Positions 5,241 through 60,607 of a stretch of DNA of 61,465 bases are shown here, piece by piece. Origin of the DNA: an uncultured Prevotellaceae bacterium (GTDB taxonomy: Bacteria > Bacteroidota > Bacteroidia > Bacteroidales > Bacteroidaceae). The stretch's first letter is position 1, and every line of letters begins with the position of its first letter. Under the pieces are notes generated by a model. The model was not told where the DNA came from, made no database searches, and worked only from the letters and a program-made list of their open reading frames with translations. Both the position numbers and the translations under genes were made by a program. Location of the stretch: NCBI GenBank assembly GCA_947166155.1, contig CAMVDC010000001.1:1-61465 (forward strand), read 5' to 3'.

Positions 5241-7082
5241 ATGAAGAAACCGATATTGATGTTTGCTTGCCTCGTGGCGGGCAGCGTGGCTTTTGCCCAG
5301 AGTCACTGGGTGGGCACATGGGGCACGGCTCCACAACTGGTAGAGAACAACAACAACCCTCCTTCGCCTGGGCTGAGCGGCAATTCGTTGCGACAAATCG
5401 TGCAGGTGTCGATTGGCGGCGAGCGTGTGCGACTGAAGCTGACGAACGAGTTCAGCAACGGACCGGCACAAATCAAGGCTGTGGAACTGGCTTACGCCAA
5501 GACGGCTGGCAGCAGCAGTGCTATCGACGAGAGCTCAGTGGTGAGCCTTACGTTTGACGGCAATGCTGGTGTGACCATTCCTGCCAAGGGCAAGGTGGTG
5601 TCCGACCCTGTGGACTTCCATCTCGAGGGGCGGCAGAATGTGGCAATCACCCTACATTATGGTTCAGCTTCTTCGACCAATGTGAGCGGACATCCCGGCT
5701 CGCGCACCACGTCGTACTTGAAACAGGGCAACACCACGAACTTCAGCGGAGCTACGACCACCGACCACTGGTATAACATCCTGGCGCTTGAGGTAGAGGC
5801 TCCCGAGGATGCGGGTGCTGTGGCCATTCTGGGCAATTCGATTACCGACGGACGTGGTTCGACCACCAACCAGCAGAACCGCTGGCCCGATGTGCTTTCG
5901 CGCCGACTGCTGGCCAACACGCCGACGAGCCATGTGGCGGTGCTCAACATGGGCATCGGTGGCAACTGTGTGCTCGGCGGAGGTCTGGGTCCCGCTGCCG
6001 TGAACCGATATCAGCGCGACCTGCTGGGGCAGGAGGGAGTGAAGTGGATCATATTGTTTGAAGCCGTGAACGACCTGGGAGGTGCTCAGAATGGTGTGCA
6101 GACGGCCAAACGCATCATCGACGTGTATAAGCAAATCATACGCGAAGCTCACCAGAAGGGCATTTATGTGTTTGGTGCTACAGTCACACCGTTCAAAGGC
6201 AACAACTACTACTCGACCGACCACGAGAAGGGGCGCAGCACGCTGAACCAGTGGATTCGCAGCACGAAGATGCTCGACGGAGTGATAGACTTCGACGAGG
6301 CGGTGCGCAACCCCGACAACCCCGAAGCCATGCAGTCGCAGTTCCTGTTTGAAAACGACTGGCTGCACCTGAACGCCAAGGGTTATGAGACGATGGGTGG
6401 ATGTATCGACCTGAACTTGTTTACCAAGACCGACCCTGTGTCGGACGTGGAGGACGAGACCGAGGAATATGGCGAAGCGCTGTGGATAGAGGCAGAAGAC
6501 CTGCGCACCACCACTGCCGGCACGGCATACCGGCTGCAGGAAGATGTAGCGGCATCGAAGGGACAATATCTGGAAACGGTGGTGCAGACGGCCAACGGAG
6601 CACCGACCGACAGTGCATACATCCTTGCCGCCAACTTCACCACACCAAAGACCGACACATATTATATATATGCACGCGTGAAGTGCCCCACATGGGACGA
6701 CGACAGCTACTACGTGAGCCTCGACGGTGCGCTGACCAGCAGTTTCGTAAACGGACTCCAGACGGCATCGTGGGATTGGAAAGAGATATATCATGGCTCC
6801 ATGCGGGCAGGTGAGCACAAACTCTATATAGGCGGCCGTGAGGATGGTGCCTGCCTCGACAAACTCTGTATCACCACCAACCCCGAAGCCCCGACGGGCA
6901 TGGGAGGCACAGCCACACCTACAGCCATCAACCGCCTGACAACCGACCGACAAGCCGAGCAGGTGGAGATATACTCCATCGACGGCATGCGCTTGACGAA
7001 CAGCGCGATGCGCGGCACATTGATCGAAGTGCATCGCAAGAGCGACGGAAGCGTGGAGGTGAGGAAGGTGAAAAGTGAATAG
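5241..7082 (+). CDS. SGNH/GDSL-family hydrolase (carbohydrate esterase-like) with CBM-like domain and T9SS C-terminal domain
   Basis: ATG 5241 gives the signal peptide MKKPILMFACLVAGSVAFAQ; the track ORF begins 21 codons earlier at 5178. SGNH block I is AILGNSITDGRGS and block V is ENDWLHLN (DxxH). A beta-sandwich-like segment (WIEAEDL...YYIYARV...LDKLCIT) follows. The last ~70 aa resemble a T9SS sorting domain. Confidence 0.8.
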   Translation: MKKPILMFACLVAGSVAFAQSHWVGTWGTAPQLVENNNNPPSPGLSGNSLRQIVQVSIGGERVRLKLTNEFSNGPAQIKAVELAYAKTAGSSSAIDESSVVSLTFDGNAGVTIPAKGKVVSDPVDFHLEGRQNVAITLHYGSASSTNVSGHPGSRTTSYLKQGNTTNFSGATTTDHWYNILALEVEAPEDAGAVAILGNSITDGRGSTTNQQNRWPDVLSRRLLANTPTSHVAVLNMGIGGNCVLGGGLGPAAVNRYQRDLLGQEGVKWIILFEAVNDLGGAQNGVQTAKRIIDVYKQIIREAHQKGIYVFGATVTPFKGNNYYSTDHEKGRSTLNQWIRSTKMLDGVIDFDEAVRNPDNPEAMQSQFLFENDWLHLNAKGYETMGGCIDLNLFTKTDPVSDVEDETEEYGEALWIEAEDLRTTTAGTAYRLQEDVAASKGQYLETVVQTANGAPTDSAYILAANFTTPKTDTYYIYARVKCPTWDDDSYYVSLDGALTSSFVNGLQTASWDWKEIYHGSMRAGEHKLYIGGREDGACLDKLCITTNPEAPTGMGGTATPTAINRLTTDRQAEQVEIYSIDGMRLTNSAMRGTLIEVHRKSDGSVEVRKVKSE

Positions 7083-10200: not shown

Positions 10201-12472
10201 ATACAAGACCACAAACCTCACATCGAACATAAAGAACGCCACATCGGGCAACACCGGTTCATGGCCCCTCACCGAACCTGCCGACGCAAAGACTGCGAGT
10301 GCACAAGCCTATAACACAGGCAACTATGGTGGCGAACTCTTCAACAAACACGGATACGTGAGTCAAACCATCAGCGTAGATCGTGCTGGACTCTACAAGG
10401 TGACTGCCACCATCCTTTCGCGTCAAGGCAGCAATGCCAACTGCTATTCACTCGGCCGCGAGGGCTATGCACTCTCGAATGCATATATCTCGGTCAACGA
10501 TACCTATTGGGCACAAGTGCCCGACTGGTACTCAGCCGCTGCATCGTCGTCCAACCCCGACAACACGGGACAGGCCAAGACCCTCATGGACCAGGGCAAG
10601 TATCGGGTGGAACTCTATGCATACGTAGATGCCAGCAAGCGCATCACCATCAAGGTGCATCAGCCGGCTTACACGGTATTCACATGGTGTGTGTTCAACA
10701 ACTTCACCCTCACCCGCATCGAGACCGAAGGTGGTACTGACATCGAAGACCCCGACGCCGACCTCACGGGCGAAGGATATACCGACCTGCTGCCATCGAT
10801 GTTCCGTCAGTGGGACGACGCAGTCAACCCCACCACCAGCAGTGATGTGGCATGCGAGTACCACATCGACGAGCCAGCCATCACCGTTTATGGCGATGCA
10901 TCGCTTCCATACCTCAACTATGCCGACCTCTCTGACTACGAGAAACTCATCGTGGTCGTGACATCCGACACGCCGCGCATGTACTTCAACAAGGTGGATG
11001 GTGGCAAATACGACGCCAGCAACGAGGCTGCATCGGGTCGCATCGAAATCACACCGGCTGGCGGATGGGCCGAGAAGTATTACACTGTAGAGAACGGCCG
11101 CTGGACTATCGACCTCGCTCAGATGGTGGCCGACAAAGGTTATGCGCGCCTCAACGGCATCAAGGGTCCTACCTACGACACACCGGTAACGGTGAGCAAG
11201 ATGGTGCTCTATAAGACACCAAGACGTCTGCCCGCCAATGGAGAAAAGGGTTATCTCTATTCGCCCGCCACAAAGAAGTTTGTGACAGCCGACGGCACCC
11301 TGGGCAATACCGGTGAACTCTTTACCATAAAGGACGAAAACACCACATTCACCACCCCCGACGGCCGCACATTGCCTGCATTCCGTTTCCTCACCGACCA
11401 CCAGTCGGCTGGCGGCGACCATGGTTCGGGTCAGACAATGCTTTCGGTTCGCAACCTCGACCGTGTCACTACTACCGAGGATTATGGTTACGGAGTGTTC
11501 TCGCTCTACCTGGGCGAGAGCGGCAGCACTTTCCGCATCATGAACGCCAAGAACGCCGACCGCGGTATCCATAAGCAGTATGACTGTCTGGGATATGAAG
11601 GCGACGTGCTGAAGTTTGTGGCTGAAGCCGATGCGCCCTACTGGATATTCATGTCGGAATCGGAATACGAGAAGCAGAACCCCGTGGGCGATGCACGTGC
11701 AGTGTTGCAGCAAGTAATCGAGGCAGCCGAGACGGTCAATCCGTTAGGCTATTCTGAGTCGAGCCTCGATGCCCTCGACAAGGCAGTGAAGGCAGCAAAA
11801 GACCTGTTGAACGACAGTGCAGCCACAACCGAAAACCTTGAGAAGGCCACAACCGAGGTGCAGACAGCGCTTGAGGGCCTCACCCTGGGCGATGGCTACA
11901 GTTTGCTCGACGCTTCGATGTATCACATATGGAGCGGCGATGCACCAGGGTCGACCATCGTGGGCGACTACGACGGCACCAGTGGCGACGATACATTCTA
12001 TGGCGACGGTAACCTCGTGATCGAGAACTATGCCGACCTGACCGACTATGACAAACTCATCATCACAGTCACCTCAAATACTCCGCGCCTGTTCTTCAAC
12101 AAAGTGGATGGTGGCAAATACAATGCAAGCGATGAAAACGGTTCGGGACGCATCGAGATATCGACGGCAGGCGGATGGGCCGAGAAGTATTTCACCGTGA
12201 TCGACGGTGTATGGACCATCGACCTGGCAGCCATTCGTGCCGACAAGGGATATGTTCACCTCAATGCCATAAAGGGTCCTGCCTACGGACAGAGTGTGGA
12301 CATCAGCTCGATGTTGCTGTATAAAGCCCCCGAAACTACAGGCATCAGCCAAGTCAGCAACTGGCAAATGGTGACCGACGAATCTGTAGTCTATACCATC
12401 AGCGGCCAGCGAGTGGCAGCTCCGCAGCGCGGACTTAACATCGTAGATGGCAAGAAGGTGCTGGTGAAGTAA
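7217..12472 (+). CDS. 1751-aa modular T9SS cargo protein with embedded PTP-superfamily (CX5R) phosphatase domain
   Basis: Signal peptide MKRIACTIACMVLLAMTSVSSAQ. Residues ~520-740 carry NIRDLGGW...YRGSELN...AAEIDLR and the P-loop HCAVGADRTG (Cys645, nt 9146-9175). A FIVAR-like helical linker sits at ~aa 1490-1555. There are two ~150-aa internal repeats. The C-terminus VYTISGQRVAAPQRGLNIVDGKKVLVK is typical of T9SS type-A sorting domains. Confidence 0.85.
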   Translation: MNIMKRIACTIACMVLLAMTSVSSAQVTDVSQRRGALAKWSTYRQIANQATDHSAFDQLLVEAEKATTDAETQSYDAQLWTALKHLIATGETKTGQFDLTALVASSFEVREFTNSKTGNVTYTLTDMPAGNYTLKVQAFQRPADNLTSNSWYESGRDVYKTNMFLGSAMQPIKNINDDARFRLTQASSDTEGANSLSVPGSLAGAKAAFNAGLYWNVMRTTVEADGDLRVGVRIASASTDNWMVCGQMRLYYGAKTVEKTLRQLVRYNITEDTYANVETNIVVNPGKPVPLCLPFNLNKSQTDSLFKAVYVLGGVEEVDGKLVGKLVPVSTIEAGHSYYVEVDETTTVGGKDVLMRAVVPDSVPALWEGGYMVGTYMTKGYGATLYLSPALQPKASTLTLQPMDYNDMSFTTNLENTTARRYLATGPYTEASPSVISSYYMTPPLRRDQPKAVVIPVPESTDRIKLTLAFKPDFSDGKSQNFVAGTTMCEVQNLVPQRTYYYKVEQGEEVLTSGQFKTEGVVRMIKASSVSNIRDLGGWTNCDGNTVRYEKIYRGSELNVGQVLNSYDLRKLQMVGMAAEIDLRATYNVNGQNTASTFGSSVPFYFSDLGRWSDNTLQLDVDKWSGTFKFLVNNVNAGKPLYFHCAVGADRTGCLAQLIEGVLGLSRDQMYHDYELTSYSPAGERKKVKLDPAINYVIQSSKGHTMQEHYFHYLVTKLGVSATDLRDFVNNMIDGETAMLHYPLSFDFADDVYFESMSDIYARCTVGSKVHSGARAQLQADGGEATAVTMKVEGPFIVFANTTLNPATTYTLTIPASAIDNPEGTSNTEAVSLRFQTPDTFAQRGYLYAPALDKFVSRGANFGCRIIADNFGLPVAISTDTDGDRLLSFLDNGLYLSHDGYGDRASTATNLKWTIETVDDGFVLKSSTGKYMALTGNSYLTANASTAAQATKLVMKTAAEQREIVSRLQFDNNIAALKKAGVETTDDAIASQIAAYKTTNLTSNIKNATSGNTGSWPLTEPADAKTASAQAYNTGNYGGELFNKHGYVSQTISVDRAGLYKVTATILSRQGSNANCYSLGREGYALSNAYISVNDTYWAQVPDWYSAAASSSNPDNTGQAKTLMDQGKYRVELYAYVDASKRITIKVHQPAYTVFTWCVFNNFTLTRIETEGGTDIEDPDADLTGEGYTDLLPSMFRQWDDAVNPTTSSDVACEYHIDEPAITVYGDASLPYLNYADLSDYEKLIVVVTSDTPRMYFNKVDGGKYDASNEAASGRIEITPAGGWAEKYYTVENGRWTIDLAQMVADKGYARLNGIKGPTYDTPVTVSKMVLYKTPRRLPANGEKGYLYSPATKKFVTADGTLGNTGELFTIKDENTTFTTPDGRTLPAFRFLTDHQSAGGDHGSGQTMLSVRNLDRVTTTEDYGYGVFSLYLGESGSTFRIMNAKNADRGIHKQYDCLGYEGDVLKFVAEADAPYWIFMSESEYEKQNPVGDARAVLQQVIEAAETVNPLGYSESSLDALDKAVKAAKDLLNDSAATTENLEKATTEVQTALEGLTLGDGYSLLDASMYHIWSGDAPGSTIVGDYDGTSGDDTFYGDGNLVIENYADLTDYDKLIITVTSNTPRLFFNKVDGGKYNASDENGSGRIEISTAGGWAEKYFTVIDGVWTIDLAAIRADKGYVHLNAIKGPAYGQSVDISSMLLYKAPETTGISQVSNWQMVTDESVVYTISGQRVAAPQRGLNIVDGKKVLVK

Positions 12473-12709: not shown

Positions 12710-14023
12710 ATGGAATATCTGCTGCATTATACATGGAAGCATCGCCTGTTTCCCTTTGGCGATATGGTCACCACCCACGGCGAGAAGGTCGAGGTGATGA
12801 GTGTCGGTATGCACAATAGCGACGGTGGCCCCGACTTTATCGGTGCGCGGCTGAAGATTGGCGGTGTGGAATGGGCTGGCAATGTAGAGATTCACATGCG
12901 CTCGAGCGACTGGTACCGGCATCATCACGACACCGATGCTGCCTACGACACGGTGGTGTTGCATGTGGTGGGGGAGGCCGATCGCGAGGTATATACACAC
13001 AGCGGTGTATGCCTGCCCCAGCTGGTGTTACGTGTCCCCGACGAGGTGAACGAAAACTATGAGCGGCTGAACCATGCCGACAGTCATCCGCGGTGTCAGG
13101 CCGTGTTGAGGCTGTTGCCCAGGGTCAGTATTACGTCGTGGCTTTCGTCGTTGTGTGTGGAGCGTCTGCACTCACGAGTCGACCAGTTGGATGTGCGCAG
13201 AGGTCAGTTAGGACAGAGTTGGGAAGATGTGGCCTTTGTCACCGTGGCACGCAACTTTGGTTTCGGAAAGAATGGCGATGCATTCGAGCGATGGGCCATG
13301 GCGCTGTCGACCAGCGCTATGAACAAACACCGCGACGACTTGTTTCAGGTCGAGGCACTCTTTTTCGGGACAGCAGGATTGCTGGCAGCCGAGGCTGATG
13401 CCTCCATGCCCGACTACTACCGACGCTTGCAGGCAGAATGGAAATACCTGTCGCGTAAGTTCGGATTGAAACCCATCGACGCCACGGCGTGGCAGTTCCT
13501 GCGTATGCGTCCGCAGAATTTTCCTTACACCCGCATTGCCCAGTTGGCCATGCTCTACCACGACGGATGCCTCGGCATGTCGCGCATAATGGGTGCACAG
13601 AATGTAGAAGAACTAATGCCACTGTTCGACACCTCGCTGAGCCATTTCTGGCAAACCCACTACACATTCTCATCTGAGCCCGTGCGCAGGCGCAGCGGTC
13701 AGCTGTCAGCTGCCTCGAAACGACTCATCATCCTCAATAGCGTGGTTCCACTGCTGTTTGCCTATGGCCGATACCGGTCGGACACCGCTTTGGTCGACCG
13801 TGCCCTCTCGTTGCTCGACGAGTTGCCGGCAGAATCAAACCACATCACACGCCAGTGGCAGCAGGCAGGAGTTGAATGTCGTTCGGCTGCCGACTCGCAA
13901 GCCCTTTACCAACTCACCACCCGATATTGCGAAGCCAAAGACTGCCTGCACTGCCGTTTCGGCCATGAATATATGCGTCAGAACCCGGGGTTTTTGAAGG
14001 AGAAGAGGGAGGACGAAAAATGA
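12710..14023 (+). CDS. DUF2851 family protein
   Basis: ATG 12710 (MEYLLHYTWKHRLFPF...GGPDFIGARLKIGGVEWAGNVEIHMRSSDWYRHHH) matches the characteristic DUF2851 N-terminus. The track ORF starts 33 codons upstream. A TATCTTTG box lies 56 nt upstream. Confidence 0.75.
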   Translation: MEYLLHYTWKHRLFPFGDMVTTHGEKVEVMSVGMHNSDGGPDFIGARLKIGGVEWAGNVEIHMRSSDWYRHHHDTDAAYDTVVLHVVGEADREVYTHSGVCLPQLVLRVPDEVNENYERLNHADSHPRCQAVLRLLPRVSITSWLSSLCVERLHSRVDQLDVRRGQLGQSWEDVAFVTVARNFGFGKNGDAFERWAMALSTSAMNKHRDDLFQVEALFFGTAGLLAAEADASMPDYYRRLQAEWKYLSRKFGLKPIDATAWQFLRMRPQNFPYTRIAQLAMLYHDGCLGMSRIMGAQNVEELMPLFDTSLSHFWQTHYTFSSEPVRRRSGQLSAASKRLIILNSVVPLLFAYGRYRSDTALVDRALSLLDELPAESNHITRQWQQAGVECRSAADSQALYQLTTRYCEAKDCLHCRFGHEYMRQNPGFLKEKREDEK

Positions 14024-14099
14024 GTGCGCACTTTCGGGGCCGAGAGTGCGCACTCGCGGGCCTGTGAGTGCGCACTCGCGAGCCTGCGAGTGCGCACTC
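14022..14099 (+). repeat. array of four exactly 22-bp-phased units, each carrying the 12-bp palindrome GAGTGCGCACTC
   Basis: Units start at 14022, 14044, 14066 and 14088. Three cores are exact and one is 11/12. GC-rich 10-nt spacers. The array starts inside the DUF2851 stop codon and is followed by ATTTTTT. Confidence 0.9.
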
Positions 14100-18325: not shown

Positions 18326-18766
18326 ATGAAACCCATCAGTCCCGAGTCGGCCCTTTCGCGTTTACAAGCATTATGCTCACGCAGCGAACAATGTGAGTCG
18401 CATGTGCGTCAGCTTCTCATGCGTTGGCAGATACCGTCGGCCGAAGCCGACCGAATAGTCGACCGTCTCGTCGAAGACCACTATATCGACCATTCGCGCT
18501 ATGCCCAGGCCTACGTCCACGATCACCTCATGTTCGACCACTGGGGGCCACTTCGCATAGCCCAAGCACTCAGGCAGATGCACATCGACTCCGACATCAT
18601 CGACCATGCTATCAGCCAAATCGACCACGACACCGTTGTCGATGCCCTCACCCACGTCATTAGCCAACGCATGCGCAGCGACTCCGACCCCGACCGCATT
18701 ATCCGCTATGCCATGCAACGCGGATTTACCTACAGCGACATAAGCCAAGTAATAAGAGAGTTATAA
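18326..18766 (+). CDS. recX: RecX family regulatory protein
   Basis: 146 aa, all-helical. ALSRLQALCSRSEQCESHVRQLLMRW...VDRLVEDHYIDHSRYAQAYV is the typical RecX repeat pattern. Confidence 0.75.
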   Translation: MKPISPESALSRLQALCSRSEQCESHVRQLLMRWQIPSAEADRIVDRLVEDHYIDHSRYAQAYVHDHLMFDHWGPLRIAQALRQMHIDSDIIDHAISQIDHDTVVDALTHVISQRMRSDSDPDRIIRYAMQRGFTYSDISQVIREL

Positions 18767-27810: not shown

Positions 27811-28030
27811 CCTCCCCTAACCCCTCTCTTATCTCCCCGAAGGGGAGAGGATGCCATCCGGGGAGAAGACCCCCTCCCCCTGTGGGTACTCCCCCTTTCA
27901 GGTGGGAGAGTCCATCCGGATTGAAATAACTAAATAGTTAAATAGTACATAAATCGTAAATAGTAAATCGTCAAATCGTAAATATTATTTGTTTCCGCTA
28001 TTCATTATTCATTATTAATTATTCATTAAA
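27811..28030 (+). repeat. composite intergenic cassette (complete example)
   Basis: Module order: CCTCCCCTAACCCCTCTC, CTCCCCgaaGGGGAG, CCATCCGG variants (two), TAAATAGTTAAATAGTACATAAATCGTAAATAGTAAATCGTCAAATCGTAAAT, ATTATTTGTTTCCGCTATTCATTATTCATTATTAATTATTCATTAAA, then the dus ATG. Confidence 0.85.
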
Positions 28031-29385: not shown

Positions 29386-29463
29386 GAGTGCGCACTCGCG
29401 GGGTCGCGAGTGCGCAGTCTCAGGCCCGCGAGTGCGCACTCTCGGCCTTGCGAGTGCGCACTC
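29386..29463 (-). repeat. inverted copy of the 22-bp GAGTGCGCACTC array
   Basis: Units start at 29386, 29408, 29430 and 29452, preceded by AAAAAAT (29379-29385). After reverse-complementing, the spacers align in order with the 14022 array (7/10, 9/10 and 8/10 matches). It lies downstream of the T9SS-CTD relic on the minus strand. Confidence 0.85.
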
Positions 29464-29592
29464 TCTGACGCCCGTTTCGGCGGTCACCTTAAATTCCATG
29501 CCTAAATGTTGTTTTCACTTCACCCACACCTTGGTTTCATCTTGGTGCATCTCGCCGCTCGGCAAATCTCTGGTGCAAGCCTGGATTTGCTC

Positions 29593-30976: not shown

Positions 30977-31140
30977 ACCGGTCCCCCCCTCTTATCCCCC
31001 CAAAGGGGGAAGATGCCATCCGGATGGAAATAACCAAATAATTAAATAGTACATAAATCGTAAATAGTAAATCGTTAAATCGTAAATGAACAAATAAATA
31101 CAAATGGTAAATGGTAAATCTGTAAATAGTAAATGAGATT
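30977..31140 (+). repeat. composite intergenic cassette (dapB-lepB gap)
   Basis: CCCCCCCTCTTATCCCCCCaaaGGGGGAAGATG, then CCATCCGGATGG (31016-31027), then TAAAT words. Positions 31016-31087 are 94% identical (68/72) to 27912-27983. Confidence 0.88.
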
Positions 31141-36285: not shown

Positions 36286-36995
36286 AGACAGCAGTAATCA
36301 TGGCCGCCGGCATGGGAACCCGCTTCGGCAAGATGACCGAAACCATGCCTAAGGGCTTTATTCCATACAAAGGAAAGGCGATGGTGGTGCGTAGCATAGA
36401 GACACTCATCGGTTGCGGCATCGAGCGCATCATTATCGGTACGGGCTACCAGCACGAGTGTTATGATGCGTTGAAGGAGCAATATCCGCAAATAGAGTGT
36501 GTGCTTTCGCCACGATATGCCGAGACCAACAGCATGTACACCCTATGGAACTGTCGCGAAGCAATAGGCAGCGACGACTTCCTGCTGCTTGAGTCCGACC
36601 TCGTGTTCGAGCCACGAGCCATCCGCGAACTCATCGATTGCGCTTACGAATCGGCTATGCTCATCACACCTGTCACCAAGTTTCAAGACCAATACTACGT
36701 GGAAATGAACTCGAAGTGCGAACTGGTAGCATGTTCGACCAACGAGCACGACATACATCCGCAAGGCGAATTGGTGGGCATACACAAGTTGAGCAACAAG
36801 TTCTACAAGACATGTATCGACGACTATGCAACCAAGGTAGAAGCACAGCCAAAGCTGGGATATGAATACCAGCTGCTCCATACATCCAGGCACTTGATGC
36901 CGATGAATGTGTTGAGGCTCGAAGGACTGCAATGGTATGAAATCGACGATATCGACGACCTCACATTTGCCGAGCAACATGTGAAGATAGAATGA
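36282..36995 (+). CDS. LicC-like nucleotidyltransferase (candidate phosphonate-specific cytidylyltransferase, PntC-like)
   Basis: ATG 36282 (the track ORF starts 30 codons earlier, inside aepY). MKTAVIMAAGMGTRFGKMTETMPKGFIP is the NTP-transferase G-loop. The C-terminal WYEIDDIDDLTFAE matches the LicC family ending. Confidence 0.75.
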   Translation: MKTAVIMAAGMGTRFGKMTETMPKGFIPYKGKAMVVRSIETLIGCGIERIIIGTGYQHECYDALKEQYPQIECVLSPRYAETNSMYTLWNCREAIGSDDFLLLESDLVFEPRAIRELIDCAYESAMLITPVTKFQDQYYVEMNSKCELVACSTNEHDIHPQGELVGIHKLSNKFYKTCIDDYATKVEAQPKLGYEYQLLHTSRHLMPMNVLRLEGLQWYEIDDIDDLTFAEQHVKIE

Positions 36996-37062
36996 ATAAT
37001 TAATAATTAATAATGAATAGCGGATGCTACGTTAATTAATAATGAATAGCGGATGCTTGAGC
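36991..37062 (+). repeat. two copies of the AATAATGAATAGCGGATGCT word (same family and orientation as 38216-38415)
   Basis: AATGAATAATTAATAATTAATAATGAATAGCGGATGCTACG is followed by TTAATTAATAATGAATAGCGGATGCTTGAGC, directly after the nucleotidyltransferase stop and 42 nt before aepZ. Confidence 0.85.
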
Positions 37063-37103: not shown

Positions 37104-38219
37104 ATGACTACACCCATAATTCCTACAATAAAGCGAAATGTGCTGCTCAACCCGGGTCCGGCCACAACGACCGACACTGTGAAGATGGCACAAGTGGTGC
37201 CCGACATCTGTCCGCGCGAAAAGGAATTTGCAGGCCTAATGAAAGGTTTGCGTTCCGACTTGCTGCGCGTGGCACACGCACCGGCCGACCAATTCACTGC
37301 AGTGCTTTTCTGCGGTTCGGGCACTATAAACATCGATATATGTATCAACTCGTTGCTGCCCGAAGGCAAGAAGATTCTGGTGGTGAACAACGGTGCTTAC
37401 AACAGCCGCGCCGTCGAGGTGTGCCAGATGTATCACTTGCCATATATCGACCTGAAGTCGAGTGTGTTTGAGCGGCCTAACCTTGCCGACATAGAACGTA
37501 CGCTCAACGAAAACCCCGATGTGGCTGTGGTGTATTGCTGCCACCACGAGACAGGCACAGGCGTTCTCAACCCCATTCGCGAGATTGGAGCCATGGCACA
37601 TCGGCACGGAGCCATTTTCATAAGCGACACCACATCGACCCTTGGCATGATACCGTTCGACATGGTTGAAGATAATGTCGATTTCTGCATGGCATCAGCA
37701 CAGAAAGGGCTCATGGCCATGTCGGGCTTGTCGTTCATCATTGGCAGGAAAGACATCATCGAAGCATCGAAACACTATCCGACACGCTCATACTACTGCA
37801 ACCTATATATGCAGTACGATTACTTCGAGCGTACCGGCGAGATGCATTTCACCCCACCCGTTCAGACCATCTATGCCACAATCCAGGCACTCAAAGAGTA
37901 TTTTGCCGAGGGCGAGGAAGCCAAGTTTGCCCGCCACCGCCGAGTGTATGAAGCCATACGCCGCGGAGTAGCACGCCTCGGCCTCGAGACAGTCATCGAC
38001 CCCGCCATCGAGTCAGGTCTTGTGGTGTCGGTGAAATACCCCGACGACCCACATTTCTCGTTCGAGCGTGTACACGACTACTGCTACGAACGCGGATTCA
38101 CCATCTATCCTGGCAAGATAAGCACCACCAACACCTTCCGCCTCTGTGCGCTCGGAACCATCGATGTGCAGGACATCGAAGACTTCTTCGTGGTATTTGA
38201 ACAGGCACTGAGGAGTTAA
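37104..38219 (+). CDS. aepZ: 2-aminoethylphosphonate:pyruvate aminotransferase (class V aminotransferase)
   Basis: LLNPGPATTTDTVKMAQVVPDICPREKEF N-terminus and the PLP-lysine region MASAQKGLMAMSGLSF. Located inside the phosphonate gene cluster. Confidence 0.8.
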   Translation: MTTPIIPTIKRNVLLNPGPATTTDTVKMAQVVPDICPREKEFAGLMKGLRSDLLRVAHAPADQFTAVLFCGSGTINIDICINSLLPEGKKILVVNNGAYNSRAVEVCQMYHLPYIDLKSSVFERPNLADIERTLNENPDVAVVYCCHHETGTGVLNPIREIGAMAHRHGAIFISDTTSTLGMIPFDMVEDNVDFCMASAQKGLMAMSGLSFIIGRKDIIEASKHYPTRSYYCNLYMQYDYFERTGEMHFTPPVQTIYATIQALKEYFAEGEEAKFARHRRVYEAIRRGVARLGLETVIDPAIESGLVVSVKYPDDPHFSFERVHDYCYERGFTIYPGKISTTNTFRLCALGTIDVQDIEDFFVVFEQALRS

Positions 38220-38415
38220 TGAATAATTAATAATAATGAATAGCGGATGCTCTTTGTTAATGAATAATTAATAATGAATAGCGGATGCTCTTTGTTAATG
38301 AATAATTAATAATGAATAGCGGATGCTTTTTGTTAATGAATAATTAATAATGAATAGCTGAAGCTCTTTGTTAATGAATAATTAATAGCGGATGCTTGGT
38401 GCACAGCGGATGCTA
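38216..38415 (+). repeat. tandem repeat, 38-bp unit TTAATGAATAATTAATAATGAATAGCGGATGCTCTTTG, ~5 copies
   Basis: Units at 38216 (41 bp), 38257, 38295 and 38333, with a degenerate copy at 38371. The array starts at the aepZ stop codon and ends 28 nt before the licD start. Confidence 0.92.
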
Positions 38416-41401: not shown

Positions 41402-42160
41402 TCAACCTTCCGATGTCGCTTTTTTCTTCTCATACACCTTGGCCAGATAGTAGAACTTGCTCGATGCCGAGAACACGGCTTTGATGAATCCGGCGCGGCC
41501 CTCGAGGCAGGCACCCTCGATGAAGTAGTATTTTATGAATCGCCACAGGGGCGAGAGCATCATCTTCATGAGCGATGCGTCGGTAGTGCCGCGTTTCACG
41601 AGTTCGTTGTCGGTATATTCGTTCATCTTCTTCAGCTGTCCGCCCACGGTGAACCCCATGTGCAATAGTGCGTACTTCGGGTCCTTGGGCATGTGGCCCA
41701 CGCTGCCGCTTATCTTGGGCACTGAGTGTATGGTAGGAGGCCATGTGGCCTTGGTGTGGTTCATGAATCGCAGTTGTGGGTCGGGATACGAAGCCTTGAT
41801 CCATCGCCCCAGAAACATGTTTTTGCGGTTCACGTAGAGTGCATCGTGGTGGTCGGCCTGCTCGATGTAGTCGTACAGATAGTCCCTCAGCTCGGGTGTC
41901 ACACGTTCGTCGGCATCCACCACCAGCACCCACTCGTTGCTGGCCGAGTGGATAGCAAAGTCGCGTGCCGGTTCGCAAATGTTGTACGAGCCCTTGGGGA
42001 ATGTCACCACGTGGCAACCATATCGTCGAGCCACCTCGACCGTGGTGTCGGTACTCTCCATGTCGCACACCACCACCTCGTCGAAGTCCTTGACCGACTC
42101 CAGTGTCCCGGCCAGCGTCTCGGCCGCGTTGTATGTGTTGATAACTATCGAAATCTTCAT
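41402..42160 (-). CDS. glycosyltransferase family 2
   Basis: ATG 42160 gives MKISIVINTYNAAETL, then DEVVVCDMESTD and VLVVDADERV (DXD), which fit a GT-A fold. The track ORF starts 8 codons upstream. Confidence 0.8.
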   Translation of the reverse strand: MKISIVINTYNAAETLAGTLESVKDFDEVVVCDMESTDTTVEVARRYGCHVVTFPKGSYNICEPARDFAIHSASNEWVLVVDADERVTPELRDYLYDYIEQADHHDALYVNRKNMFLGRWIKASYPDPQLRFMNHTKATWPPTIHSVPKISGSVGHMPKDPKYALLHMGFTVGGQLKKMNEYTDNELVKRGTTDASLMKMMLSPLWRFIKYYFIEGACLEGRAGFIKAVFSASSKFYYLAKVYEKKKATSEG

Positions 42161-42328
42161 CGTCATGCATCTTTTCGATGGCAAAGATAGTAATTATTTC
42201 ACATTCCGACGCTCACAATCACCGATTATTTTGCCAAAGACCTCATATTCCTCGTGCCCATCAGCGGCTTTATCAGCCAAAGCTGATATTTCGGTCGCAT
42301 GCGCCTGGCATCCGACAAAACCCTGAGC

Positions 42329-42634
42329 CTACGCACTAAAAACCTCGCGACTACGCATGAAAAAACTCGCGAGTGCGGAGGAATTCTTTAATTTGCGACG
42401 CAAATTATTAAATTTACGTCGCAGTTTTATTAATTTTCCACCGAAAATTATTAAATTTACGTCGCAAATTAAAGAATTACTCCGCACTCGCAGGCAAATT
42501 AGTCCGCACTCGCAGCAAAATTACTGCGCACTCGCAATAAAACTTAACCGTTCCTTCAATAAAACTTCACCGTTCTTCCAGCAAGACTCTACCTTTCTTT
42601 CAGCAAAACTCACCGTTCTCGCTGCAAAAAGAGG
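42329..42634 (+). repeat. ~14-unit array of 22-bp phased repeats around a 98-bp core bounded by 25-bp inverted repeats (element A)
   Basis: Each unit has an A/T-rich half and a G/C-rich half (CGCACTCG, ACGTCGCA or ACCGTTC types). Core IR arms are AATTCTTTAATTTGCGACGCAAATT (42381-42405) and its complement with one mismatch. The 113-bp segment 42380-42492 is 92% identical to 54321-54433. Confidence 0.9.
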
Positions 42635-42799
42635 GTGGCGTGGTGCATGGTGATATGCGCGCGTGTGCGCGTGTAATATTAATAAGGTGTGGTGCATGTA
42701 GTGGCAGGCAGTTGGTCGTTTCGCGTGGTGGATGATGGCGTTGAGGCCGATTTATGCATATTTCGTGTGATAAGGTCGGGTGGTTACATGGTTTTTTCG

Positions 42800-42807
42800 T
42801 ATCTTTG
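42800..42807 (+). promoter_or_regulatory. Bacteroidota -7 box TATCTTTG
   Basis: Exact TAnnTTTG, 15 nt upstream of the LPS-kinase ATG. Confidence 0.55.
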
Positions 42808-42821
42808 CATCGCAATAACTG

Positions 42822-43592
42822 ATGACGATTATGACGAGATATGAACTGAGTGGCGAATATGACTCCAACCGCGATTTGCTCGATTTCATCGGCCGAATCG
42901 ACACAGAGTTCGACACCGAAGGCCGGATTTTGTTTGCCGGCAGGCGCAACACGCTGGGGGAGTTTTGCATAGCCGAGGGGCACCCAGTGCTCGGACATGT
43001 GGTGGTGAAGCGTTTCAACGTCCACGGCCCGCTGGCAAGCATTGTGTATGGAGTGTTTCGACGTTCGAAGGCTCAGCGTGCTTTCCGCAGCGCCTTGCGC
43101 CTGATGGAGGCGGGATGCAGCACTCCGCAGCCGATAGGGTGGATTGAGGTGAAGAGCGGCATGCTGCTCAGGCGTTGCTACTATATATGCACATACACCG
43201 AGGCACAGTCGGTGCGCACCGAGTTGGAGGTGGAACGTAACATGGAGCTTGCCACGAGTTTTGCCCACTTCATCGCACGCATGCATTCGCACGGCATCGT
43301 TCACCACGACCTCAACCTGTCGAACGTGCTTTACGAACTCGATGCCGACGGGCGATATGTCGTTTCGGTAATCGACATCAACCGCACTACCTACACTCCG
43401 CCATCGCGCCTGTCGCTGCGCAGCTGCATCGACGACTTCGTGAGATGGACCGACGACCCCGAACTCTTTGAACACGTAATGCGCCGATATGCCGAAGCGC
43501 GCAACCTCGACCCCGAGGCCTTTCTCGCGAAGGCATGGGGCATGAAACGCTGGCACGATGTGTGGTGGAAAGTGAAGAAATGGCGACTATAA
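42822..43592 (+). CDS. lipopolysaccharide kinase family protein (Kdo/WaaP/InaA type)
   Basis: 256 aa. VVKRFN (Lys), catalytic loop HGIVHHDLNLSNVLY, then VIDINR. A TATCTTTG box lies 15 nt upstream. Confidence 0.7.
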   Translation: MTIMTRYELSGEYDSNRDLLDFIGRIDTEFDTEGRILFAGRRNTLGEFCIAEGHPVLGHVVVKRFNVHGPLASIVYGVFRRSKAQRAFRSALRLMEAGCSTPQPIGWIEVKSGMLLRRCYYICTYTEAQSVRTELEVERNMELATSFAHFIARMHSHGIVHHDLNLSNVLYELDADGRYVVSVIDINRTTYTPPSRLSLRSCIDDFVRWTDDPELFEHVMRRYAEARNLDPEAFLAKAWGMKRWHDVWWKVKKWRL

Positions 43593-43800
43593 AGCCCCCC
43601 TAACACCTCCAAAGCCCCCTCCCTGAATAATTGAAAGGAAGTTAAAGGGAAGTAAAAGGGAGTTAAAAGGGAGTTAAAGGGACGATACCTACTCCGAGGC
43701 AACATCCGTCCTTTTAACTTCATAGCGAAGCGATAACTTCTTTTCCATTCCTTTCCATTCCTAAATAGTAAATAGTAAATCTGTAAATAGTAAATAACAA
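43593..43800 (+). repeat. composite intergenic cassette variant with AAGGGAAGTTAA words
   Basis: CCCCCCTAACACCTCCAAAGCCCCCTCCC, then GGAAGTTAAAGGGAAGTAAAAGGGAGTTAAAAGGGAGTTAAAGGGA (the complement of 17272-17320), then TTCCATTCCTTTCCATTCC, then TAAATAGTAAATAGTAAATCTGTAAATAGTAAATAAC. Confidence 0.8.
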
Positions 43801-45311: not shown

Positions 45312-45348
45312 CCGCTATTCATTATTCATTATTAATTATTCATTAAAA
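45312..45348 (+). repeat. CCGCTATTCATTATTCATTATTAATTATTCATTAAAA module upstream of groEL
   Basis: A stretch of 36-37 bp is identical to 27995-28030, which lies directly upstream of the dus start. Confidence 0.9.
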
Positions 45349-54098: not shown

Positions 54099-54204
54099 CG
54101 TTTTCTTACATAAACGGAACTACACCTTATTATATTATATATAGCACGCAATAATAATAAATATAGCACGCAGTTTCTTTCATAGGGCATCAAAACACCA
54201 CGCG

Positions 54205-54490
54205 GATATGCAGGTTTTGCTGCGAGAGCGGTGTAATTTGCTTGCGAGTACGTAGAAGTTTTGCTGCGAGAGCGGTGTAATTTGCTTGCGAGTACGTAGA
54301 AGTTTTGCTGCGAGTGCGTAGGAATTCTTTAATTTGCGACGCAAATTAATAAAATTGCGACGCAGTTTTATTAATTTTCCACCGAAAAACAATAAATTTG
54401 CGTCGCAAATTAAAGAATTAGTCCGCACTCGCAAGGTTTTTACTGCGCACTCGCAGGTAAATTACTACGCACTCGCGAGGTTTCTTCTCT
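54205..54490 (+). repeat. ~13-unit array of 22-bp phased repeats around the same core (element B)
   Basis: Perfect 25-bp inverted repeats at 54322-54346 and 54395-54419, separated by 48 bp. An exact 44-bp tandem duplication spans 54214-54257 and 54258-54301. The left-arm TGCGAG-GCG units are the complement of the right-arm CGCACTCGCA units. Confidence 0.9.
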
Positions 54491-54516
54491 GTACTTGCAT
54501 GCAAAAAACATGTGCA

Positions 54517-55536
54517 CTATATGGCATCGACGACGTTGAATCCGAAATCGAACAAGGTCTGTGCCTCGGTGAATCGCGATGCATGGGTCTTGCTCTTGAG
54601 CAGTACGAGGGTGAGCGTGGAGCCTCCGGGGCGGCTGACCGACGCAGCGAGACACGCACCGGCATTGCGGGTGAAGCCTGTCTTCACACCATTGCAGCCG
54701 TCGTACTGGTTTAGCAGTTGGTTGGTGTTCCAGCATGGCATGTGGCGGCCGTCGGTGAGTGGAAGGTCGGCATAGGGTGTGCTCACGATTTCAGCAAACA
54801 GGGTGTCGGCCATGCAGTAGCGTGTGAGGACGAGCAGGTCGCGTGCGGTGCTGTAGTTGCTGTCGTTGGGCAGGCCGTTGGGATTGGCAAAATGGGTGCT
54901 GTCCATGTGCAGGTAAGCCGCCTTGTCGTTCATCATCGAGACAAAAGCCAGCGTGTCGCCTGCTATATGCTGCGCAATGGCGTATGCCGCCACATTGTCG
55001 CTCTGCAACATCATCTCGACCAGGAGGTTGTGGAGTGTGAACTGATAGCCGGGGCGCACCATGGCACCGGTGGTGACGAAGATGTCGGGAGTGATGACGA
55101 CAGTGTCGCTGAGGTTGCCATGCTCCAATGCAATGAGGCATGTCATCATCTTGGTAAGGCTGGCGGGATACATGCGGCGGTCGGCATCGCGGGCACTGAG
55201 CATCATGCCCGACGAGTCATCGACCATAATCCACGACTCGGCAGTGAGGCGGGCGAGCGATGCGTAGCCGTCGATGGTGTCGATGTTGACGTGGGTGCTG
55301 AGGGTGGTGTCGATGGTGCAGGCACGCTCCAGTCGCAACTGCTCGGCACGGCGCGATGAAGAGTCGCCGCAACTTGAAAAGCTTAGAGTGGCGAGCACTG
55401 CCATCAACCAACAACGAATGATGATTGATGAGCGGCCGATGCTGGTGGTTTTATCCCTTTGGATGCTGGTGGTTTTATCCCTTTGGACGCTGGTGGTTTT
55501 ATCCCTTTGGATGCTGGTGGTTTTATCCCATTCCAT
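54517..55536 (-). CDS. D-alanyl-D-alanine carboxypeptidase (S11 serine peptidase, PBP5/6-like)
   Basis: SxxK motif PASLTKMMT, then LQSDN (SxN) and a C-terminal KTGFT (KTG). Lipobox-like LSFSSC. The first 35 codons are four octapeptide repeats encoded by a 24-bp tandem repeat. The alternative start is 55404. Confidence 0.85.
   Translation of the reverse strand: MEWDKTTSIQRDKTTSVQRDKTTSIQRDKTTSIGRSSIIIRCWLMAVLATLSFSSCGDSSSRRAEQLRLERACTIDTTLSTHVNIDTIDGYASLARLTAESWIMVDDSSGMMLSARDADRRMYPASLTKMMTCLIALEHGNLSDTVVITPDIFVTTGAMVRPGYQFTLHNLLVEMMLQSDNVAAYAIAQHIAGDTLAFVSMMNDKAAYLHMDSTHFANPNGLPNDSNYSTARDLLVLTRYCMADTLFAEIVSTPYADLPLTDGRHMPCWNTNQLLNQYDGCNGVKTGFTRNAGACLAASVSRPGGSTLTLVLLKSKTHASRFTEAQTLFDFGFNVVDAI
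55441..55530 (-). repeat. 24-bp tandem repeat, 3.75 copies (GCTGGTGGTTTTATCCCTTTGGAT)
   Basis: Units at 55441, 55465 and 55489, with a partial unit at 55513. On the minus strand it encodes DKTTS(I/V)QR octapeptides at the 5' end of the carboxypeptidase ORF. It also contains the AlkD-like gene stop codon. Confidence 0.9.
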
Positions 55537-60540: not shown

Positions 60541-60607
60541 AATCGTATTTACTATTTACAGATTTACAATTTACGATTTAATTCTATTTGTTTTCCATTT
60601 TCCATCT
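60541..60607 (-). repeat. TAAAT/TTCCATT word module in the frdC-frdA gap
   Basis: The minus strand reads AGATGGAAAATGGAAAACAAATAGAATTAAATCGTAAATTGTAAATCTGTAAATAGTAAATACGATT and is followed by the frdA ATG. Confidence 0.8.

Follow-up and report, generated by a model that had tools for sequence, protein, structure and literature searches.

A 22-bp phased foldback element in an uncultured Prevotellaceae bacterium and its probable membership of a dispersed intergenic repeat family

What is a long array of phased 22-bp units doing between two divergent genes of an uncultured Prevotellaceae bacterium? The array, Element A (hereafter also copy A), lies on contig CAMVDC010000001.1, in a stretch of 61,465 nucleotides that we refer to as the window, between a GT2 glycosyltransferase gene (41402-42160, minus strand) and a Kdo/WaaP-family kinase gene (42822-43592, plus strand). 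A first-pass annotation, made from the sequence alone, had described these divergent genes, the gap between them (660 bp in its count, 661 bp in ours) and the -7 box of the kinase gene, TATCTTTG, which starts at 42800, and we recovered all three. It had gone on to propose an iteron-like array regulating this divergent promoter. Our analysis points elsewhere: with a probability of roughly 0.6, Element A belongs to a non-coding family of foldback repeats that is dispersed in uncultured Bacteroidaceae of ruminants (Prevotella-like metagenome-assembled genomes, MAGs) and would persist as selfish or neutral DNA.

Foldback anatomy of the element

The phasing that had been annotated at 42329-42634 is real. 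Tandem Repeats Finder (TRF) returned arrays with a period of 21-22 at 42329-42372, 42382-42471, 42475-42536 and 42539-42619, and the stretch as a whole has a self-identity of 0.58 at a lag of 22, against a maximum of 0.39 at any lag in 1000 shuffles. Across the window, lag-22 self-identity averages 0.25 (standard deviation 0.04), and 42329-42634 gives the top 22-bp signal in these 61 kb. The patterned stretch had nevertheless been drawn too short, as the left arm starts at ~42320 and a family-specific tail on the right runs to ~42700. Regarding the inverted repeats, the single mismatch is correct (24/25), but the coordinates were one base off, with AATTCTTTAATTTGCGACGCAAATT at 42382-42406 pairing with 42454-42478, and the repeats stand 47 bp apart instead of ~48. 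They reach 50-nt arms, with a complementarity of 86%.

Copy A contains three kinds of unit: the modules, of which the core has four, and two types of arm unit, type 1 and the degenerate type 2. The core (42382-42478, 97 bp) reads AATTCTTT, four in-phase modules with ATT or AAT between them, and AAAGAATT. The modules (unit 1, AATTTGCGACGCAAATT, at 42390-42406; unit 2 at 42410-42428; unit 3, AATTTTCCACCGAAAATT, at 42432-42449; unit 4 at 42453-42470) are spaced at 21-22 bp and form palindromes of 17-19 bp with CGTC/GACG at the dyad centre, three of them being of the AATTTGCG-W-CGCAAATT type and the other AATTTTC-CACC-GAAAATT. The arm units are not palindromic. On the left (42320-42381, minus strand), three 22-nt units read outward as AATTCCTCCGCACTCGCGAGTT, TTTTCATGCGTAGTCGCGAGGT and TTTTAGTGCGTAGGCTCAGGGT, the first of which starts with the AATT of the core itself (42382-42385) in 22-nt register. 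On the right, three type-1 units (42479-42540, plus strand; AATTACTCCGCACTCGCAGGCA, AATTAGTCCGCACTCGCAGCAA and AATTACTGCGCACTCGCAATAA, in register from 42475) are followed by four degenerate, AACTTCACCGTTCTTCCAGCAA-like type-2 units (42541-42627, plus strand), which are the hypervariable part among strains. The tail module (42628-42700, plus strand) closes this side with an alternating purine/pyrimidine tract, ATATGCGCGCGTGTGCGCGTGTA (42653-42675), and then AATAAGGTGTGGTG (42681-42694).

Read outward from the core, the two arms mirror each other, both with their 22-nt register perfectly kept; therefore, the whole element is a long foldback. Its DNA is predicted to fold at -56.9 kcal/mol (z -7.6). 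The element is non-coding, because a period of 22 nt is not a multiple of 3 and indels of 1, 4 and 22 bp separate the strains.

The same parts recur in the window at 54100-54503 (copy B), with the tail on the opposite side and a predicted DNA fold of -79.8 kcal/mol (z -11.1). As the first-pass annotation had stated, a 113-bp core segment of copy A (42380-42492) is 92% identical to 54321-54433 (104/113). In copy B, the tail module and a transition (54100-54216, minus strand) read outward TGCGTGCTATAT...ATAATAAGGTGTAGTT, with the motif at 54118-54131. The left arm (54217-54322, minus strand) is made of five units of 22 nt, among which a 44-bp double unit occurs in 2.4 copies, the core (54323-54419) is again 97 bp long, its match to copy A being the one measured over 54321-54433, and the right arm (54420-54503, plus strand) has four units. 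This arm ends ~14 bp from the stop codon of the adjoining D-Ala-D-Ala carboxypeptidase gene (54517-55536, minus strand).

Relatives at other loci and change among strains

We used a 20-mer from the inverted repeat to scan the GTDB species representatives, and the inverted-repeat pattern to scan the JGI and ENA metagenomes. Among the species representatives, true copies appeared in MAG RGIG4776, from roe deer reticulum (loci L004 and L012), and a diverged four-module subfamily in a Prevotellaceae MAG (L008 and L013). The metagenomes gave about 20 further copies, all from ruminants (L017-L044), in which paired hits were always 78 bp apart. With about 20 copies elsewhere, in metagenomes and the MAG, the family is not limited to the two copies noticed initially. 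Many of the metagenome copies sit at contig ends, as expected because such a repeat breaks short-read assemblies. No family match was found in viral contigs, plasmids or phages. Searched at the gathering threshold, Rfam gave no match to a known family, in line with the first-pass annotation, and its sole hit in the window was a tRNA-Asn elsewhere.

The core is the constant part of the family. Searching with the core profile gives a single copy at each locus and two copies in the window, and there are exactly 89 nt between CTTTAATTTGCG and CGCAAATTAAAG in every one of the 16 complete cores (13 distinct); among the 13 distinct cores, 64/89 columns are invariant and mean identity is 91%. The arms, with 3 to 9 or more units each, follow a 22-nt consensus, AATTACTCCGCACTCGCAGCAA, whose best-conserved part is the GC box CGCACTCGC. 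Matches to this consensus fall outward from unit 0 to unit 6 (18.8, 15.9, 16.3, 12.0, 9.4, 7.9 and 7.1 of 22, with 5.6 for random sequence), so that a typical copy shows about three well-matching units on each side and, beyond them, a fringe that decays. A tail module, made of the alternating purine/pyrimidine tract and TATAAGGTGTGG, is often present at one end; that of copy A is found also at one end of copy B, L017, L027, L035 and L037. Altogether, family copies span from about 220 to over 375 bp.

Within the species, change is concentrated in the arms. For copy A we compared five full versions (the window, L051, L054, L057 and L058), in which variable columns amount to 1.3-1.7% in the flanks, 0% in the core, 6.5% in the type-1 arms, 28% plus a 22-bp indel in the type-2 arm and 9.6% in the tail, and many of the arm differences are variants swapped between neighbouring units. 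L054 (2365-3010) carries a 4-bp deletion (GACG) at the dyad centre of core module 1 (window 42398-42401), as expected for palindrome-stimulated deletion. In copy B, one 44-bp double unit of the left arm is missing in five conspecific strains, and L041 has a shorter far arm. In one of its arms, the single locus seen as L024 and L035 has 4 vs 8 units. No other DNA of the region changes as fast among conspecific strains as the arms, which behave as minisatellites, gaining and losing whole units and swapping variants between units. The difference in unit number between samples at one locus could serve as a strain-level length marker.

When cores from different loci are compared, nearly all differences fall at binary positions, which correspond to modules that have been inverted. 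The loop of unit 3 is CACC in six of the 13 cores, GGTG in another six and CGTG in one, and the whole unit reads ATTAATTTTC..GAAAAACAAT or its reverse complement depending on the locus. In the same way, units 2 and 4 read AAATTT..CGCAGTTTT or AAAACTGCG..AAATTC. No core inversion was seen between samples of one locus at any locus: orientation is constant in copy A (5 full samples), in copy B (window, L041 and L067-L071), in L024 vs L035 and in the part seen of L004 vs L028. Since the arrangement at each locus is the same in every sample, the module flips are rare events and not a switch.

Regarding more distant relatives, one with 93% amino-acid identity (L050) has the element at the copy-B site, and another with 76% identity (L048) has no family copy in 21 kb and is not syntenic downstream. 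In L047, which has a kinase orthologue of 78% amino-acid identity, the core and type-1 arms are absent from the region upstream of the kinase gene. Its positions 280-470 correspond to window 42540-42700 and keep the tail module and two degenerate type-2 units, next to a different upstream gene. With another upstream gene, the core and type-1 arms gone and the tail kept, synteny therefore breaks exactly at the element.

Both genes flanking copy A have their own -7 box TATCTTTG outside the element, the GT2 gene at 42182-42189 (minus strand) and the kinase gene at 42800-42807 (plus strand); the latter box is conserved in L047, as is the kinase promoter region. An open reading frame (ORF) at 41430-42170 was rejected as the GT2 gene, being in the wrong frame. 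Within the element, the sole perfect match of this intergenic region to TAnnTTTG, the Bacteroidetes -7 consensus, is at 42523 on the minus strand, in an arm. A sigma-70 promoter scan returned no more hits than shuffles did, and the sigma-70 model does not apply to Bacteroidetes. Family copies neighbour genes for an outer-membrane beta-barrel protein, MgsA, a methyltransferase-like protein, GNAT, MG2, BspA-LRR, GH3, GT2, Kdo kinase, D-Ala-D-Ala carboxypeptidase and DUF2809, which are mutually unrelated and lie in all orientations. Among 17 scored sides, 11 face gene 3' ends and 6 face 5' ends, and both L004 and L012 lie between convergent genes with their own terminator hairpins, beyond those terminators.

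Because the neighbours are unrelated, both -7 boxes are outside and L047 keeps the kinase promoter without the core, the element is not a device specific to glycan genes. At the copy A locus, we infer that it is a passenger between two self-sufficient promoters. The proposal of an iteron-like regulator of this divergent promoter is not supported, given the copies beside unrelated genes and the position of both promoters outside the element, and the fast-changing arms among conspecific strains argue against conserved iterons.

Some observations made at these loci concern other sequences. In L012, positions 1-503 encode the C-terminal part of a transposase of the ISL3 family, which is separated by ~35 bp from the outermost arm unit of the foldback element (539-825), and this ISL3 element ends in GGCGCTTTCGAACCACAAATTTCC (complementary strand), which is unrelated to the ends of the foldback element. 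A small hairpin motif, TATTGCTAAAAARTTTTTASCGGACAGCAATA, is common to L012 (935-975) and L025 (about 140-185), near family copies, and in L025 it abuts a truncated half-core. Five Vibrio species (L001, L006, L007, L009 and L015) have the 20-mer palindrome TTTAATTTGCGACGCAAATT as a lone, conserved site upstream of a gene for a PTS transporter, and it also adjoins genes in Alistipes, Rikenellaceae and Bacteroidaceae MAGs (L003, L005, L010 and L014); in Bacteroidales, these sites overlap a -7-type box, TAAATTTG. Lacking the family architecture, the single TTTAATTTGCGACGCAAATT sites of Vibrio and other Bacteroidales are probably unrelated operator or promoter sites. Finally, the carboxypeptidase gene next to copy B has near its 5' end (55438-55529) a 24-bp in-frame tandem repeat (GATGCTGGTGGTTTTATCCCTTTG x3.8), with one unit fewer in other strains, and shows a ~470-bp internal deletion between short direct repeats in three strains (L067-L069).

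Readings of the family

As a dispersed foldback repeat, the family would have been copied at the DNA level, whether through transposition in trans or through recombination. The 17-bp core palindromes would be the parts most likely to be recognised in such copying, and the 22-nt arm units may be accessory sites, like the subterminal repeats of foldback-type transposons. Arm arrays would grow and shrink by slippage and unequal exchange, and module flips could arise via recombination or template switching among the inverted repeats, or through gene conversion between oppositely aligned copies. Physically, the element would matter chiefly as DNA prone to form a cruciform or hairpin and as a hotspot at which length varies and rearrangements occur.

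The first-pass annotation had also noted a resemblance to a MITE (a miniature transposable element with inverted repeats), which holds loosely: the element is built from inverted repeats, small, non-coding and multi-copy (two in the 61-kb window, about 20 loci elsewhere). However, the strong repeats (24/25; 50 nt at 86%) bound the core and not the whole element, no consistent target-site duplication was found among 8 complete copies, no empty site among the conspecific samples, and no cognate insertion sequence (IS) with the same ends on the contig and metagenome fragments. The element is of the intergenic foldback/MITE-like kind, outside any named family, and we found no published description of it.

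Several observations weigh against a mobile or selfish origin. No empty site was seen when orthologues of the kinase and the carboxypeptidase were followed, as all conspecific samples carry both copies, and L047 is ambiguous, being without the core yet keeping the tail and two degenerate units next to another upstream neighbour. There is no consistent target-site duplication and the outer ends are fuzzy, with arms that fade into unique DNA; between the 50-nt flanks of the 8 complete copies, the longest direct repeats have 5-8 nt and their distances from the ends are inconsistent, much as chance would give. The 61-kb contig and the metagenome fragments yielded no autonomous partner or transposase with matching ends. 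Besides, the search patterns demanded a conserved 19-20-mer of the inverted repeat, which under-samples divergent relatives, and family counts rest on MAG and metagenome fragments instead of per-genome copy number. Finally, a core without indels across loci, together with strict phasing, could reflect selection for binding of a host protein.

This last point leads to the reading that survives best after the foldback repeat, although we regard it as rather unlikely: a host-functional array in which a dimeric DNA-binding protein (a regulator, a nucleoid or a partition-like protein) would sit on the four 17-bp palindromes, which stand two helical turns apart, and spread over the mirrored 22-nt units, organising local DNA or expression. 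Judged by their sequence, the four core palindromes may bind a dimeric protein. The invariant length of the core and its 64/89 invariant columns, the exact 22-nt register of the arms and the conservation of the GC box all fit such an array, and the palindromes are kept as sequence and not by compensatory change, as predicted for the site of a sequence-specific dimer. On the contrary, the arms are the most variable DNA of the region within the species, with unit numbers that vary at one locus (4 vs 8, or +/- 22 or 44 bp), and copies are found beside unrelated genes and between convergent genes. The family occurs in one GTDB species representative only, with a distant subfamily in a second, and no candidate binding protein was identified. 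The intrinsic curvature expected in the first-pass annotation was not borne out either: no excess was predicted, with fractions of shuffles reaching the observed value of 0.31-0.36 for copy A and 0.056 for copy B in a first-order wedge model with approximate Bolshoy-Trifonov parameters, which makes this a rough check.

An improbable variant of the foldback repeat would have the element copy itself via a single-stranded or hairpin DNA intermediate. The core would then be laid out as a T-shaped hairpin, with an outer stem enclosing two small palindromes, and the flip/flop modules, about equally frequent across loci, might be the signature of hairpin-primed replication and resolution, or of hairpin-guided HUH-type processing; the mirrored arms of 22-nt units would have arisen as by-products of this process or serve it as accessory sites. 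The inverted terminal repeats (ITRs) of parvoviruses form a T-shaped hairpin with flip/flop isomers. Like them, the element has an outer stem enclosing two small palindromes and internal parts in either orientation. Unlike them, it is chromosomal and bacterial, and its flips are stable on the strain time scale.

More doubtful still is a mobile promoter, in which the AT-rich palindromes (TAAATTTG and TTAATTTG) would act as -7 boxes firing outward or through the element. TAAATTTG fits the consensus TAnnTTTG, and a perfect box is present in the core of copy B (54393, plus strand) as well as in the arm of copy A mentioned above (42523, minus strand). Segments of the BrickBuilt elements, which are discussed below, have bidirectional promoter activity (PMC4596501). 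Nevertheless, copy A lacks a perfect -7 box in its core, none of the boxes has a -33 TTTG at the consensus spacing and both neighbours of copy A have boxes of their own outside the element. The larger share of sides facing gene 3' ends (11/17) and the two copies between convergent genes do not suit a promoter either.

We give equally little credence to a structured RNA, that is, a transcribed long hairpin acting as terminator, RNase III site, mRNA stabiliser or small RNA. The core and proximal units are predicted to fold as RNA at -58.6 kcal/mol (z -11.2), and copy B is probably transcribed, because it starts ~14 bp past a stop codon with no other terminator between. Still, we found no covariation keeping the pairing, and the two structures tested, one a T-shaped fold and the other a set of four local hairpins, both have lower scores than their shuffles. 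No Rfam family matches; a permissive scan gave weak, generic long-hairpin hits, mostly miRNA precursors, the best of them with 43.5 bits, far below its gathering threshold of 139.7. The stem is not followed by a U-tract, the promoters on either side of copy A are divergent, L004 and L012 are beyond the terminators of convergent genes, and copies occur in both orientations.

Least probable of all is an inverton for phase variation, in which the 47-bp interior would be turned round by a recombinase acting at the 25-bp inverted repeats: Bacteroidales commonly have invertons, the short interior is indeed flanked by inverted repeats in a glycan-gene promoter region and its orientation relative to the tail module differs among loci (5 one way, 1 the other), but every independent sample (assembly) of each locus has the same core orientation, the copy A interior has no perfect -7 box and 47 bp would be very short for synapsis. 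In glycan loci, foldback repeats like this one can be mistaken for regulatory arrays or invertons.

If the foldback repeat is the right explanation, it would add a distinctive architecture to the few families of bacterial intergenic repeats, with mirrored minisatellite arms, a palindromic core of four modules and module flip-flop, in ruminant Bacteroidaceae that only MAGs represent so far. It would also offer a tractable case for the symmetric growth of tandem arrays around a palindrome, and for cruciform-prone DNA that is tolerated or used in Bacteroidales. It touches no long-standing open question.

Known systems and other repeats in the window

The closest comparison is BrickBuilt/MITEPgRS of Porphyromonas gingivalis, intergenic elements that enclose a minisatellite with 23-nt or 41-nt units (PMC4596501). 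Both families are found in Bacteroidales, strictly intergenic, multi-copy, non-coding and a few hundred bp long, with a spacer-less minisatellite of variable copy number (PMC4596501), and in both the copies are fixed in place among strains while repeat number varies. BrickBuilt has, however, one direct 23-nt array between a leader and a tail and IS5-type terminal repeats, GAGACCTTTGCA, whereas in the foldback family 22-nt arrays are mirrored around a four-module core, and we found neither defined terminal repeats nor an IS partner. The GAGACCTTTGCA motif is absent near copies A and B, even when allowing up to 2 mismatches.

Similarly, BOX of Streptococcus pneumoniae and REP/BIME of enterobacteria are modular, non-coding intergenic repeats with variable internal units and strong predicted structure, often at gene 3' ends (PMC10969869, PMC3733652). 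REPs are stem-loops of 20-40 bp, one end of which bears GTAG or CGTC as an unpaired tag, and those with GTAG are associated with RAYT transposases (PMC3733652). In the foldback family, by contrast, CGTC/GACG is at the centre of the palindrome and there is no tag, and no Y1 transposase (RAYT) was found among the flanking ORFs scanned on the 61-kb contig and the short metagenome fragments. BOX differs in its direct order A-(B)n-C, as opposed to mirrored arms (PMC10969869, PMC3733652).

The family also recalls two more remote systems. The first, in architecture only, shares with it inverted repeat arms, a copy-variable arm length and a short centre, with no sequence relation: these are the foldback (FB) transposons of Drosophila, which are eukaryotic, of kilobase scale, with long inverted arms of tandem short repeats and an associated transposase. 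The second are the iteron replication origins of plasmids and phages, which adjoin an AT-rich segment; the R6K plasmid has 22-bp iterons, and copy A likewise shows 22-bp phased repeats next to an AT-rich segment. We rejected a replication origin for the element, as the window has two chromosomal copies 12 kb apart between housekeeping genes, with no adjacent rep gene and no plasmid or phage match, and the repeats are hypervariable between strains.

Within the window, the first-pass annotation had related the G/C halves of the units to arrays of GAGTGCGCACTC, and the link is confirmed by a 9-mer, GCGAGTGCG/CGCACTCGC, that the arm units share with the arrays at 14022-14099 and 29386-29465. These arrays are composed of a 12-bp palindrome and a 10-bp GC-rich spacer with a 22-bp period, between an A-run and a T-run, and look like REP-like or bidirectional-terminator arrays. 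Their equivalents in L048 lie at 5910-6000, 11068-11160 and 18517-18610 and have the palindrome GAGGATATCCTC. From their sequences, the GAG-N6-CTC palindrome appears to be species-specific (GAGTGCGCACTC in the window, GAGGATATCCTC in L048), with a shared architecture. The GAGTGCGCACTC arrays, with GCACTC-N10-GAGTGC, resemble the GCACTC-N9-GAGTGC of CIRCE/HrcA, but this link is improbable, as the spacing is wrong and there are no TTA flanks.

Besides these, the window contains intergenic AT-rich heptamer arrays (TAAATAG, TATTCAT and AATGAAT) and a 38-bp x4.5 array, located at 27931-27984, 31054-31134, 43762-43796, 60547-60580, 27999-28028, 45316-45345, 36991-37019 and 38215-38387. One of the heptamer arrays lies between groES and groEL.

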